Position numbers and translations under genes: made by a program
Assembly (NCBI GenBank): GCA_951406725.2
Contig: OX597822.1
Location: forward strand, 67,332,001 to 67,396,000
Length of the DNA: 64,000 bases
Direction: 5' to 3'
DNA from: Octopus vulgaris
Lineage: Eukaryota
In this document: one piece after another, positions 9,251 to 56,421 of the stretch
How the letters are laid out: each line of letters begins with the position of its first letter
Numbering within the stretch: the first letter of the stretch is position 1
The notes under the pieces: generated by a model
The model's input: only the letters and a program-made list of their open reading frames with translations
Told to the model about the DNA's origin: nothing
The model's database searches: none

Positions 9251-9566
9251 GGTGGAGGCACAATAGCCCAGTGGTTAGGGCAGCGGACTCGCAGTCGGAG
9301 GATCGCAGATTCGATTCCCAGACCGGGCGTTGTGCGTGTTTATTGAGCGAAAACACCTAAAAGCTCCACCATTCTCCGGCAGGGGCGGGGCGACCCCTGT
9401 TATACTCTTTCGTCACAACTTTCTTCAACTCTGTCTTTCTGTTTCTTGAGTAACGCTGCGATGAACTGGCGTCCCGTCCAGCAGGGAGGAACACATACGC
9501 CACAGAAACGGGGAAACCGGGCCCATGAATCTGACTAGGCTTGAAAAGGGCGACGTTTATCGTTTT
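9251..9566 (+). mobile_element. tRNA-derived SINE, head A + tail 2 (chimeric relative to 2051)
   Basis: First ~190 nt match 2051, while the 3' part matches the tail of the SINE at 21406. 11-bp TSD AATATTTGTTA (9240-9250 / 9567-9577). Confidence 0.88.
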
Positions 9567-14287: not shown

Positions 14288-14561
14288 CATTATTTACATT
14301 ATTTACATTTGACGGACATTTGTTCTCATCTTGTTTGTTGTTAACACAACGTTTCGGCTGATATACCCTTCTGACTTCATCAGGTGTCTTGAGGAAATTT
14401 CGAACCTGGGAATGAGAACGCAGGTTCGAAATTTCCCCAAGACACCAATGATTTCCCCAAGAAACGTTGTGTTAACAACAAACACGATGAGGACAAATAT
14501 CCGTCAAATGTAAATAATGTAAATAATGTACATAATTCCTCATCTCTTGAATATAGAACTG
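14288..14561. mobile_element. Short palindromic Penelope-derived element (inverted pseudo-LTR arms) with hammerhead-like motif
   Basis: Arms 14288-14408 and 14422-14529 are reverse complements. 12-bp flanking direct repeat AAATTATTTAGA (14276-14287 / 14562-14573). Same sequence family as the terminus of the GIY-YIG element at 36970-37090. Confidence 0.85.
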
Positions 14562-17376: not shown

Positions 17377-17388
17377 TATATGTGTGAT

Positions 17389-17500
17389 GTTTACAGCATC
17401 TAGGTTTCCCAAGCGGTCACCCATCTAAGTACTAACTAGTCTCGACGTTGCTTAACTTCGGTGATCGGACGTGAACCGGTGCTTTCAACGTGACATAGCC
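17389..17500 (-). pseudogene. 5S rRNA pseudogene
   Basis: Minus strand GGCTATGTCACGTTGAAAGCACCGGTTCACGTCCGATCACCGAAGTTAAGCAACGTCGAGACTAGTTAGTACTTAGATGGGTGACCGCTTGGGAAACCTAGATGCTGTAAAC matches metazoan 5S. It lacks the first ~6 nt, has helix-breaking substitutions and has no T-run terminator. Confidence 0.9.
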
Positions 17501-18887
17501 AGTCCTCGACTGCATGGCGGCAACAATGGACAGTGGACAACTACTTGCAGATAGAAGAAAATAAATTAAACTGTATCAGATTCAGAGTTTTAAAAAAAAA
17601 ACGTTTTTTGTAACGCTACACGAAGCAAAAGTTAGGTTCACGATTATATTGCTATCTTAATTTCAGTGGGAACACCTCGTTACACGGAAGAGCGTTATCA
17701 CGAGGTAATAGCAAAGGAGAAAAAATCCTGACCGTTTTAGTGAAGTTTCTTTTAATCTATTTTGGCCAGAAATAAATAACCATACCCTGCGGCAACGTTT
17801 CTCAGATCGCCTTGATTTAGTTACTCAAGTTTTGATGCAGACAAAAACGTTAATAATCAAATACTTGGATAGCATGAGGTCGATGTCCTGTAACCTGCAA
17901 TGTATAAGATATTTGGATAATGTTGTCAATATTTCATATAAACTCCAATCTGCATCAAATTATATGTTGTACATATTACTGTAAACAACACTTTATATCA
18001 TGCTGTGAAATAATCTAACTGTTGATTAAAAAAAAACTGTGAAATAGTATAAAATACAGAGATTACTGGAAATCGAAACTCTATCGGATTATGAATAAAT
18101 GCGGCAATATCATATTATGAAACAGGATACTACATTACTGCATACTGCGATCAGTATCATGATATGAAATACAAATATTTCTGAATATTACAACGTATAT
18201 ATTTCTATAAAATGAAAACATGATTTTTCATTGCAGCCTGTCGTATATTACTTAACATAAAATGTTATATGAAAATAAAGCTTAACCATATTGTATAATG
18301 CTGTTTTCTTGCTCTATCTCTCATTCCTAAGTTTCATTCAGTATCTGCCTGCCTTTCTTTTATCTCACACTTTCTCTCTTACATGTTCTTCTTCTCTCTC
18401 GATCAATCCAGCTTTTTCCAATGTCCGATATCTCTTGCGTTTACAATATCCAAACAAAAGAAAAGGCTTAGATACAAATACTCTATACTCTGGCGTACTA
18501 TCATAGGGAATTGCAGATATTGACATAAACTACAATGTTTTCAGGCTGCATATTATTTTCCACGTTTGTACATAAATTAGCGATTATCAATGTAGGATTG
18601 ACGATTTCTTCATTACCGTGTAATACCATAAATATTTTCATTATTATATTAATTGGCGTATAAAATATACATGGAAAATGAAGGCCTCATTAAAGTGATA
18701 TGAAAAGGTCTTTACAAAATGTCATTGAAGGCCTTCATTTTCTAGTACCGTCCACTCAAGAATATCTATCTATCTATTGATAAGACAAGAGGGGAAATAG
18801 AACTTAATACAGGAGTATATAGTTTTTCTCTATTTAATCGATAGTAAGTTGCAAAAATTCAAGTCTCAGGAGACGAAAGTGTCGAGT

Positions 18888-34287: not shown

Positions 34288-35016
34288 TTTTCTAATCTAG
34301 GCACAAGATCCGAAATTTTAGAGGCGGAACCAGTCGATTAGATCGACCCCAGTGTGCAACTGGTATTTAATTTATAGACAGCGAATGGATGAAAGGCAAA
34401 TTCGACCACGGCGAAATTCAGAACGTAGCGGTAGACGAAACACGTATTTCTTTATTACCCACAAGGGGCTAAACACAGAGAGGACAAACAAGGACAGACA
34501 AACGGATTAAGTCGATTACATCAGACCCAGTGTGTAACTGGTCCTTAATTTATCGACCCCGAAAGGATGAAAGGCAGAGTCGACCCTGGCGGAATTTGAA
34601 CTCAGAACGTAAAGACAGACAAAATACCTATTTCTTTACTACCCACAAGGGGCTAAACACAGAGGGGACAAACAAGGACAGACAAACGGATCAAGTCGAT
34701 CACATCGACCCCAGTGCGAAACTGGTACTTAATTTATCGACCCCGAAAGGATGAAAGGCAAAGTCGACCTCGGCGGAATTTGAACTTTCATTATTACCCA
34801 CAAGGGGCTAAACATAGAGGGGACAAACAAGGACAGACATAGGTATTAAGTCGATTACATCGACTCCAGTGCGTAACTGGTACTTAATTTATCGACCCCG
34901 AAAGGATGAAAGGCAAAGTCGACCTCGGCGGAATTTGAACTCACAACGTAACAGCAGACAAAATACCGCTTAGCGTTTCGCCCGGCATGCCACCGTTTCT
35001 GCCAGCTCACCGCCTT
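34288..35016 (-). mobile_element. Family S SINE tetramer with repeated linker module
   Basis: Four GGATGAAAGGCAAAGTCGACC cores separated by ACCCACAAGGGGCTAAACA.AGAGGGGACAAACAAGGACAGAC, with a single head and a single tail. Confidence 0.9.
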
Positions 35017-36950: not shown

Positions 36951-36968
36951 AATGAATAAAATAAAGTA

Positions 36969-37918
36969 CAGTTCTATATTTAAGAAATAAGGAATTATGT
37001 ACATTAGATGGATATTTGTCCTCATCTTGTTTGTTGTTAGCACATATACCCTCCAGCCTTCATCAGGGGGAAATTTCGAACCTGAGTTCTCATACCTAAG
37101 GTATTTTTCGATGTTATTATTATTATTATTCAGGTCACTGCATGGAATCGAGCCTCGAATCTTGGGGCTAGTAGCCCGCGCTCATAACCACTATGCCATA
37201 TGACCGTGGGCAATGACAGAGTGAATTTTAGGACTTATAAATCTAATATTCTCCTATCCTTCCTTAATACCAGTTCCCATATGCTGCTCATATATGCATT
37301 CGGTCTGCTTAGAAGGTTGTTGTGTCCTAGCATATGTGCTACTTCTTTAGTTTTCGTATTTTCCAGTGGTGTTCTTTGTCTATTATTTTAACTTCATCCC
37401 AGAGGGGGAAGTGGTCGCCAATTTTTCCATACATGATCAGCTATACCCGATTTATGAATATCTCTTTTGCGATGTTCTTCTACTCTTATTTTGAGGGGGC
37501 GGCATGTTTTGCCTTTGTATAACCTACCACAGCTGCAGGGGATGGAGTACACGCAGTCTTTGGTCATATTCTCTTCTATTGGTGGTTTTACTCGAAGGAG
37601 ATATTTGCGAAGTGTTGTATTACTCTTGAGTACTGTCTTGATGTCATATGGGCCGCATATCTTTTGTATCTTTTCGGAGAGACCATTCACATAGGATAGA
37701 CAGACTGTGAACATTTCATTGGCTTCATCCTCTCTCTTCTTCATAATTGGAGTGGATCGTATAGTTTTGGGGTAGTTGTTGCTTAACAGATCGTTATTGA
37801 GCCTGATCATTTCTTCGTGGTGTATATCACGACCGCTACTTATATTCTTTGCACGATGTTTTAGGCACTGAGCAATCCCTCTCTTTACACTGTCCGTTTT
37901 CTGACTACTGTAATCCAC
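36969..37918 (-). mobile_element. 5'-truncated Penelope-like element: RT C-terminus, GIY-YIG endonuclease and pseudo-LTR
   Basis: ORF 37394..37918 reads CVYSIPCSCGRLYKGKTCRPLKIRVEEHRK..SGIADHVW and LSYVNGLSEKIQKI. The terminal region matches 14288 and 56311. Confidence 0.9.
37133..37205 (-). other. 73-nt tRNA-like cassette inside the Penelope 3' region
   Basis: GGTCATATGGCATAGTGGTTATGAGCGCGGGCTACTAGCCCCAAGATTCGAGGCTCGATTCCATGCAGTGACC: acceptor GGTCAT/GTGACC, A box TGGCATAGTGG, B box GGCTCGATTCC. Confidence 0.7.
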
Positions 37919-38434: not shown

Positions 38435-38970
38435 AGGCGGCGAGCTTGGCAGAAAAGTTAGCACGCCGGGCGAAATGCTTGAGGTCGACTTTGCCTTTCG
38501 TCCTTTCGGGGTCGATTAAATAAGTACCATTTACGCACTGGGGTCGATATAATCGACTTAATCCGTTTGTCTGTCCTTGTTTGTCCCCTCTGTTTAGCCC
38601 TTTGTGGGTAATAAAGAAATAGGTACTTCGTCTGCCGTTACGTTCTGAGTTCAAATTCCGCCGAGGTTGACTTTGCCTTTCATCCTTTCGGGGTCGATAA
38701 ATTAAGTACCAGTTACTCACTGGGGTCGATATAATCGACTACTTAATCCGTATGTCTGTCTTTGTTTGTCTCCTCTGTGTTTAGCCCCTTGTGGGATAGT
38801 AAAGAAATAGGTATTAGGTCAGCTTTACGTGATGAGTTCAAATTGCGCCGAGGTCAGCTTTGCCTTTCATCGTTTCGAGGTCGACAAATTAAGTACCAGC
38901 TGCGTTCTGGTGTAGATCTAATCGACTGGCCTCCTTCCCCAAAAATTGGGCCTTGTGCCTAGAGTAGATA
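38435..38970 (+). mobile_element. Family S SINE trimer with linker module
   Basis: One head AAGGCGGCGAGC, three cores, two linkers and one tail CCTAGAGTAGA. Confidence 0.88.
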
Positions 38971-53094: not shown

Positions 53095-53483
53095 GGAGGC
53101 GCAATGGCCCAGTGGTTAGGGCAGCGGACTCGCGGTCATAGGATCGCGGTTTCGATTCCCAGACCGGGCGTTGTGAGTGTTTATTGAGCGAAAACACCTA
53201 AAGCTCCACGAGGCTCCGGCAGGGGATGGTGGTGATCCCTGCTGTACTCTTTCACCACAACTTTCTCTCACTCTTACTTCCTGTTTCTGTTGTACCTGTA
53301 TTTCAAGGGGCCGGCCTTGTCACTCTCTGTGTCACGCTGAATATCCCCGAGAACTACGTTAAGGGTGCACGTGTCTGTGGAGTGCTCAGCCACTTACACG
53401 TTAATTTCACGAGCAGGCTGCTCCGTTGATTCGGATCAAGCGGAACCCTCGTCGTCGTCGTAACCGACGGAGTGCTTCCATCC
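53095..53483 (+). mobile_element. Family A SINE, full length
   Basis: Near-identical to 2051-2433. TSD AGCCGCCC(C/T)AAA (53081-53092 / 53484-53495). TCCA tail repeats. Confidence 0.92.
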
Positions 53484-56293: not shown

Positions 56294-56421
56294 AGGCGGC
56301 GAGCTGGCAGGTTCGAAATTTTCCCAAGACACCTGATGAAGGCTGGAGGGTATATCAGCCGAAACGTTGTGTTAACAACAAACACGATGAAGACAAATAT
56401 CCGTCAAATGTGAATAATGTA
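56294..56421 (+). mobile_element. Family S SINE 5' end fused to a Penelope pseudo-LTR segment
   Basis: AGGCGGCGAGCTGGCAG joined at CAG to GTTCGAAATTTTCCCAAGACACCTGATGA.., which matches 14422-14529. Confidence 0.8.
56328..56373 (+). ncRNA. Minimal type I hammerhead ribozyme motif (Penelope-associated)
   Basis: Stem I GACAC/GTGTT, core CTGATGA plus an extra A, stem II GGCTG/CAGCC, then GAAAC-GTT with a palindromic ACGT stem III. Predicted cleavage after GUU (56368). Confidence 0.7.

Follow-up and report, generated by a model that had tools for sequence, protein, structure and literature searches.

The closest described systems are Penelope-like elements (PLEs). In Poseidon of Anolis carolinensis, as described in the sections of the report used here (Frangieh 2024, PMC11167929), reverse transcription starts inside the ORF at two sites and needs the first 172 nucleotides (nt); the hammerhead is cut 26 nt after the start codon, and cleavage is dispensable in vitro. 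For Penelope of D. virilis, the corresponding sections describe a TATA-less, LINE-like internal promoter and an intron (Schostak 2008, PMC2377424). We analyzed a PLE copy in a 64,000-nt stretch of Octopus vulgaris DNA, which as a whole is called the window. This copy contains a tRNA-Arg-like cassette with A and B boxes. We consider it somewhat probable that the cassette served the element as its own Pol III promoter, with transcripts running from position −6 through an ORF that is free of T runs.

The copy occupies positions 37893-36967 of the minus strand, the strand of all its parts given below. By sequence inspection, it consists of a frameshifted ORF end, a tRNA-like head, (AAT)5, and a damaged minimal hammerhead, and similarity to other copies of the family begins at 37893. 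The ORF remnant (37235..37893), which ends with the stop codon TAA (37237-37235), is the 5'-truncated and frameshifted 3' part of a PLE ORF. It comprises the end of the reverse transcriptase (RT) region, known from longer family copies in which RVT_1 scored above the cut-off, and a GIY-YIG-type endonuclease. Pfam GIY-YIG gave no match on the 181-aa frame of the window; the frame aligns into the GIY-YIG region of the PLE protein P0066, which matches PF01541 (E 1e-12). The stop codon is followed by a short linker (37212..37234), which contains a degenerate, inverted version of the first ~17 nt of the head, and by a segment (37206..37211) with a small palindrome, at which short copies end and fold back. 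This segment also contains the G at −6, the RNA start predicted from copy ends. The head itself (75 nt, 37205-37131) is tRNA derived and has decayed stems; its A box (37198-37188) is intact, and its B box (37153-37144) has one mismatch private to the window copy. The 5' UTR includes (AAT)5 (37130-37116), an array of variable length among copies. The coding part of the pseudo-LTR (36967..37093) comprises the ATG (37093-37091) and the first ORF codons, including the damaged hammerhead and a PLE tail of ~33 nt (about 36999-36967). The hammerhead core starts ~50 nt past the AAT repeat (37066-37060), and the motif has lost GAAA/stem III as well as the 5' arm of stem I. This is the layout given in an earlier note on this DNA, namely, a GIY-YIG-type ORF remnant, an A/B-box cassette, an AAT/TAA repeat, and a partly deleted hammerhead. 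The feature is real, and the element, a PLE truncated at its 5' end in this copy, is of a known kind with an unusual putative promoter.

In the complete unit of the family, head, (AAT)n, ATG, hammerhead (codons 11-24), an RT/endonuclease ORF of ~840 aa, a linker of ~30 nt, and the next head follow one another. The unit is ~2.55 kb long and has ~150 nt of non-coding sequence; the cassette is placed ~50 nt upstream of the start codon. The reading frame opened by the ATG spans both the hammerhead, with its predicted cut site after nt 70, and the tail; 3 of 76 tail matches continue into the RT ORF. At locus L239, the head is immediately followed by a frame that leads into the ORF and has no stop in the 100 codons read. 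A head or head remnant also stands before the ORF in L226, L229, L231, and L039, and L226 and L231 are ORF-linker-head-ORF tandems. The earlier note had assigned the cassette to the 3' terminus of the element. This placement is not correct: the head is the 5' end of the element, and the ATG and the frame into the RT-endonuclease ORF come after it.

A majority frame, built from a MAFFT alignment, was open over 787 codons and contained the DKG and YVDD motifs. As in EN+ PLEs, there is a single ORF with RT followed by a C-terminal endonuclease region that aligns to a PF01541-bearing PLE but in the longer copies, too, gives no Pfam GIY-YIG match, and partial-tandem pseudo-LTRs, inverted 5'-truncated copies, and a 30-40 nt tail were found. 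Relatives (P0001-P0022) were 57-75% identical, and P0019 (57%) has the same hammerhead-encoded N terminus. A genome search with P0019 recovered, as far as inspected, only the head-bearing family, so that no close headless sister was at hand as a control. A metagenome scan yielded one distant relative (35% identity). Copy 3' ends fall into two classes, which in L102 lie 123 and 154 nt past the ATG. A 9-nt unit located at the proximal one is repeated 0-4 times among copies (e.g., L094, L098, and L101), a variation that could reflect template re-alignment at the RT start, recalling telomerase repeat addition. LINE ORFs that we take to be R4/Dong-like adjoin the AAT array in L044, L051, L059, L111, and L119, which suggests that the array is a target of a microsatellite-seeking LINE.

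Minimal hammerheads are expected in PLE pseudo-LTRs, and one is present at 56328-56373 of the plus strand, while the copy at 37066 is damaged. As previously noted, the motif at 56328 is intact; it is of type I, and its predicted fold includes stems I and II. Rfam made no call on it. It is contained in a headless, extremely 5'-truncated copy (56308..56418, plus strand). Positions 14288..14561 hold a back-to-back inverted pair of headless truncated copies with a junction near 14408 and mutations in both hammerheads. The copies at both sites begin at or just after the ATG. They had been proposed to be short products of the Pol III cassette (at 14288 and 56311), an origin that we rejected because both lack the head. 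An exact 29-nt hammerhead segment was found 2,454 times in the genome and its reversed control 0 times, showing that the hammerhead is not a chance match. From 9 of 89 exact matches, the family size was roughly estimated at ~24,000 hammerhead ends. Judged by its sequence, the hammerhead is an ordinary PLE dimer-type motif.

The A box (head positions 8-18) and the B box (53-62) fit what we take to be the Pol III type 2 consensus across 218 heads, and T is found at head position 54 in 98% of the aligned heads. In the majority letters of these heads, pairs are left at 2 of 7 positions of the acceptor stem and at 3 of 5 positions each of the anticodon and T stems; the head thus does not have the paired acceptor, anticodon, and T stems of a tRNA gene. 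At default settings ARAGORN did not call it, and neither did Rfam RF00005, indicating that the head is tRNA derived but not a tRNA; relaxed ARAGORN (90%) made 13 'Ser(act)' calls on heads. The Infernal check that had been suggested returned, at threshold, neither the head nor the hammerhead from Rfam. Among 30 genomic tRNA matches, a sample that misses many isotypes, the nearest was tRNA-Arg (46 and 45 of 73 positions identical), and the head of a sister subfamily was, by eye, even nearer to Arg(TCT). The SINEs OR1 and OR2 are of tRNA-Arg origin. In the main subfamily, an ATG-codon-stop mini frame lies in the A box (window 37199-37191, minus strand); the sister subfamily does not have that ATG.

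This sister subfamily (L412-L441, L323, and L040) is ~87% identical to the main majority over the ORF. It has kept the head and the hammerhead, lacks the AAT array, has a different UTR, and shows an in-frame 27-nt insertion, corresponding to nine extra codons after the ATG. Both boxes are retained although the adjoining UTR was replaced. Head and ORF are also present in contigs of organisms A, C, and D. Family copies are ~94% identical to the majority sequence, no intact copy was seen (the best unbroken RT frames have ~570 aa), and the family looks old.

The head is a trait of the family. When only the ORF tail was used as a query, 30 loci were obtained, and the head was present, whole or in part, in 29 of the 29 loci other than the window copy; these are best matches, and headless distant kin would be missed. 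With the head alone as a query, 29 other loci were obtained and read by eye: the ORF lies upstream of the head in 5 of them, the other 24 start with the head, and no alternative shared tail was noticed. The downstream ATG/hammerhead block was carried by 56 of 59 ORF-linked heads and by 57 of 66 unlinked heads. No target-site duplication framed the head in ORF-linked copies. Among the copies compared, the cassette is neither missing from most nor, where it is ORF-linked, equipped with a target-site duplication of its own, two of the observations that had been named as speaking against the proposal. An independent SINE insertion into the window copy alone was ruled out, the head being family-wide.

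Random sampling of the genome (20 x 10 kb) yielded 0 copies, and for this reason copy ends were mapped on hammerhead-picked loci. Used were 90 loci from the first 92 listed of the 2,454 exact matches, all on contig C1 and enriched for little-mutated copies. The head segment was absent from 23 loci, 12 ended inside the head, and 55 reached the head start or beyond. Of these 55, 41 ended at −8..+4 and 14 continued upstream; 8 of the 41 scored further upstream solely through a fold-back arm. The end rate was 0.105 per nt at −8..+4 and 0.003 per nt on either side (~30-fold lower), which points to an RNA start in this interval. The start was intact in 106 heads, of which 57 continued into the linker and 49 did not. 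Of the latter, 18 stopped at −6 or −7 and 3 matched the linker beyond −7. This distribution fits an RNA beginning at approximately −6, and the palindrome located there may add to the peak: the ends pile up on it and 14 of the 49 short heads have a fold-back arm, suggesting that structure contributes. The pile-up marks an RNA end and not which polymerase made it. In L187 (near 1320-1335), the sequence at a fold-back junction immediately upstream of the head shows approximately two telomere-like repeat units.

Structure could also account for the ends without any promoter. The element would then be copied from read-through transcripts, and a hairpin of linker and head would stop RT and fold it back, mimicking a start. 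The hairpin across the junction amounts to −13.4 kcal/mol (natural copy L069), the fold-back arms agree with it, and inversions are typical of PLEs in the part of the literature used here (PMC8557442). However, a stall would be expected at the 3' foot of the hairpin (about +17), whereas the ends were concentrated at −7..+4 and broke off sharply at −7. Fold-back is missing from many ends, and the 14 of 55 loci that continue upstream pass through the hairpin. Neither the conservation of the boxes nor the lack of TTTT described below is explained in this way, and we regard this origin of the ends as rather improbable. Alternatively, the RNA could be freed at +1 from a longer transcript of Pol II, in which RNase P would cut the tRNA-like fold. 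In line with this, 14 of the 49 short heads have no linker match upstream of +1. The poorly paired acceptor stem and the missing default ARAGORN and Rfam calls speak against a substrate of this kind, as do the 18 short heads that extend to −6 or −7, and processing by RNase P seems to us hardly credible.

RNA reads from three runs of one related organism were equal on both strands and followed the copy-number profile. Their depth approximately doubled at the head and fell from ~950 to ~15 after the tail, as this profile predicts, and no sharp RNA start was seen in these reads. They weigh on neither side of the question of Pol III transcription.

If Pol III reads through the element, the ORF should be free of TTTT (T4), the Pol III stop. 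This prediction was recorded before testing. T4 was absent from the head, the UTR, and the first codons. In the near-full copy L202, 0 T4 runs were found in the sense ORF, vs 31 A4 runs. The majority sense frame contained 0 T4 in its 787 codons at 21.6% T. Expected T4 numbers were 2.7 by own-codon shuffling (P0 = 0.040), 4.5 under a third-position null (P0 = 0.005), 4.2 under a fourfold null (P0 = 0.009), and 3.9 by base shuffling (P0 = 0.018). Phe codons of the majority frame were TTC:TTT 13:6, vs C:T 84:88 at other twofold sites. In 149 decayed segments, 62 scattered T4 were counted in 166 kb (0.37/kb); simulated decay from a T4-free ancestor gave 0.59/kb. The sister majority had 0 T4 in 944 nt despite 63 differences; contrary to the prediction, the sister segment L443 had 4 T4 in 2 kb. 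Of the 30 genomic tRNA matches, 23 are followed by T4 or longer within 30 nt, with exactly T4 as the first run in 9.

Frames of other elements served as controls, with up to four scored per cluster. In a young intact PLE of the same genome with 21-22% T, frames of 781 codons had 9 and 8 T4 (4 T5 each), and six non-family PLE frames together had 25 T4 in 2,551 codons. In six LINE frames, which we take to be R4-like, 6 T4 were found in 2,212 codons vs ~10.5 expected, a number that is also somewhat low. The T4 evidence is moderate, coming from one lineage with P = 0.04 under the strictest null. The young PLE (L361 and L362 on contig C16, and about 18 listed matches with 781-aa frames) has RVT_1 and GIY-YIG. 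It shows a second open frame of 330-400 aa upstream and is possibly a two-ORF PLE. Its repeat contains tandem boxes and a motif that we assume to be CCAAT/CRE-like and TATA-like, respectively.

The RNA could start at the head and still be made differently. Pol II would make the long coding RNA, the cassette being exapted as, or overlapping with, a TATA-less promoter, or Pol III would make short runs, and the lack of T4 would be due to chance and A-rich coding. Such an origin would remove the translation problem discussed below, and the LINE-like, TATA-less promoter of a known PLE, as described in the sections used (PMC2377424), provides a precedent. The P0 of 0.04 and the mildly T4-poor R4-like frames are also compatible with it. 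It does not account for the conservation of both boxes in two subfamilies in which stems and UTR change, nor for the difference between 25 T4 in the other PLE frames and 0 in the majority frame. We judge it unlikely, and among the readings other than a Pol III promoter of the whole element it is the one to be taken most seriously.

The earlier note had suggested that the family captured an internal Pol III promoter that makes a short self-cleaving RNA independently of the ORF, in a SINE- or retrozyme-like system. The capture agrees with the data, a tRNA-derived A/B-box cassette being linked to the hammerhead throughout the family. The independence from the ORF does not: the hammerhead lies within the first codons, and no TTTT follows the head. 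A self-propagating unit of head and hammerhead, as in schistosome Sm-alpha, was nevertheless weighed. Among hammerhead-picked loci, short head-to-tail copies outnumber ORF-linked ones ~3:1, and SINE-like repeats with a Pol III promoter and a hammerhead are known in schistosomes, as far as described in the sections used (PMC6765202). However, no non-CpG variant was private to the short copies (59 ORF-linked vs 66 unlinked heads). A hammerhead core variant occurred as T:A 33:16 in long and 35:17 in short copies, and both linked haplotypes were present in both classes. There is no terminator, and the apparent tail is the 5' end of the ORF. The 3' ends of short copies also coincide with the inferred RT start sites and lie short of the region on which the activity of Poseidon depends. 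Thus, the suggested count of copies with and without the ORF did reveal many ORF-less copies that start at the head, but they do not form a lineage of their own. CpG sites were less decayed in short than in long copies; this could hint at later activity of the short ones, but the picking method would also produce it, and as proof of SINE activity it was rejected for ascertainment. An ORF-independent SINE or retrozyme appears to us very improbable.

The reading that we prefer, a Pol III promoter at the head of an autonomous PLE, can be put together as follows. Pol III would start 6 nt before the head and read through the whole ORF. By analogy with the anole Poseidon, RT would start at two sites, ~123 and 154 nt into the ORF. 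From a start in the first pseudo-LTR of the RNA, RT would reach the RNA 5' end after ~280 nt and leave a short copy extending from head to tail, in many cases with a fold-back at the small palindrome. A start in the downstream pseudo-LTR would yield long, randomly truncated copies such as the one in the window. Short copies would be one-way by-products and dead ends rather than a SINE lineage, because they lack the ORF sequence beyond the RT start that the protein needs.

A more far-reaching version is possible, although we would not call it probable. An autonomous PLE would have exchanged its Pol II promoter for one captured from a tRNA-Arg and cleared its 2.5-kb ORF of every Pol III terminator. 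The Pol III transcript would be both uncapped mRNA and template, with tens of thousands of SINE look-alikes as by-products. Weighing against a Pol III mRNA, the uncapped 2.7-kb RNA needs a route to translation, and in the main subfamily the two-codon upstream frame in the A box would precede the start codon. Engineered Pol III transcripts can be translated; our literature search on this point returned nothing relevant. Read-through transcription by Pol II is another possible source of the protein.

The RNAs made by Pol III are generally regarded as short and non-coding, and transcription of autonomous retroelements is attributed to Pol II, or to Pol I in the case of R2. If the preferred reading is true, a PLE lineage of ~24,000 ends would offer a natural experiment on the translation and mobilization in cis of a long Pol III RNA. 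It would also illustrate how SINE-like units can originate from within their partner element, and entries listed as 'tRNA SINEs' in repeat libraries could in some cases be PLE ends. Among the papers listed by our searches of the openly accessible literature, none was seen to describe such a promoter in a PLE; the family might already be contained in the consensus files of PMC13282606 or PMC8557442.

Other features were also seen in the window. Another abundant tRNA-headed repeat (53104-53162 and 9263-9321, plus strand) is 64-66% like the PLE head and has an unrelated body. A 5S rRNA-like sequence (17388-17507, minus strand) scored 87 bits with Rfam. ARAGORN called a tRNA-Thr(CGT) at 1714-1793 of the minus strand (Rfam, 33 bits), which could represent the head of a SINE. 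Another high-copy repeat forms tandem units of ~160 nt at about 38480-38960, upstream of the PLE copy, and at 34300-34850.

Comparison with tRNA-derived SINEs, a group that includes octopus OR1 (named in PMC4824008), shows a decayed tRNA head, intact A and B boxes, and a 5' end, predicted in the PLE, a few nt before the head as common features. Unlike tRNA SINEs, the octopus PLE has no separate body or LINE-type tail, and its own UTR and ORF follow the head. With the SINE-like repeats Sm-alpha and Sj-alpha of schistosomes, as far as described in the sections used (PMC6765202), it shares a Pol III-type promoter, putative in octopus, followed by a hammerhead. These repeats are non-coding tandem repeats with canonical hammerheads, whereas the octopus cassette is the 5' end of an autonomous coding element. 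Minimal type I hammerheads of metazoan PLEs, according to the part of the paper used (Cervera and De la Pena 2014, PMC4209133), have the same 5-bp stem I, unpaired base before stem II, and palindromic minimal stem III, and they also occur as single or opposite-strand copies from truncated PLEs. The terms 'tRNA' and 'polymerase III' are absent from the main text of that paper.

The octopus PLE bears a resemblance to Penelope/Poseidon-type elements, and this resemblance lies in the layout alone. In common with Poseidon of Anolis, in the sections of the report used (PMC11167929), are a single ORF with RT and then GIY-YIG, a pseudo-LTR that runs into the ORF, a hammerhead that overlaps the ORF start, and truncated copies in tandem or inverted arrangement. 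Both elements also have two 3' ends separated by ~31-33 nt (123 and 154 nt after the ATG in octopus; PAc 111-118 plus 30-40 in Poseidon). No tRNA-type promoter is described for Poseidon in these sections; in octopus, half of the ~150 nt of non-coding sequence is the A/B-box head, and the ORF is T4-free. The octopus PLE differs from Penelope of D. virilis, in the part of that report used (PMC2377424), by its A/B-box head and by having no intron evident in the genomic sequence. It shares with Penelope the position of the promoter, putative in octopus, in the pseudo-LTR, so that in tandems the end of the upstream copy serves the downstream ORF.
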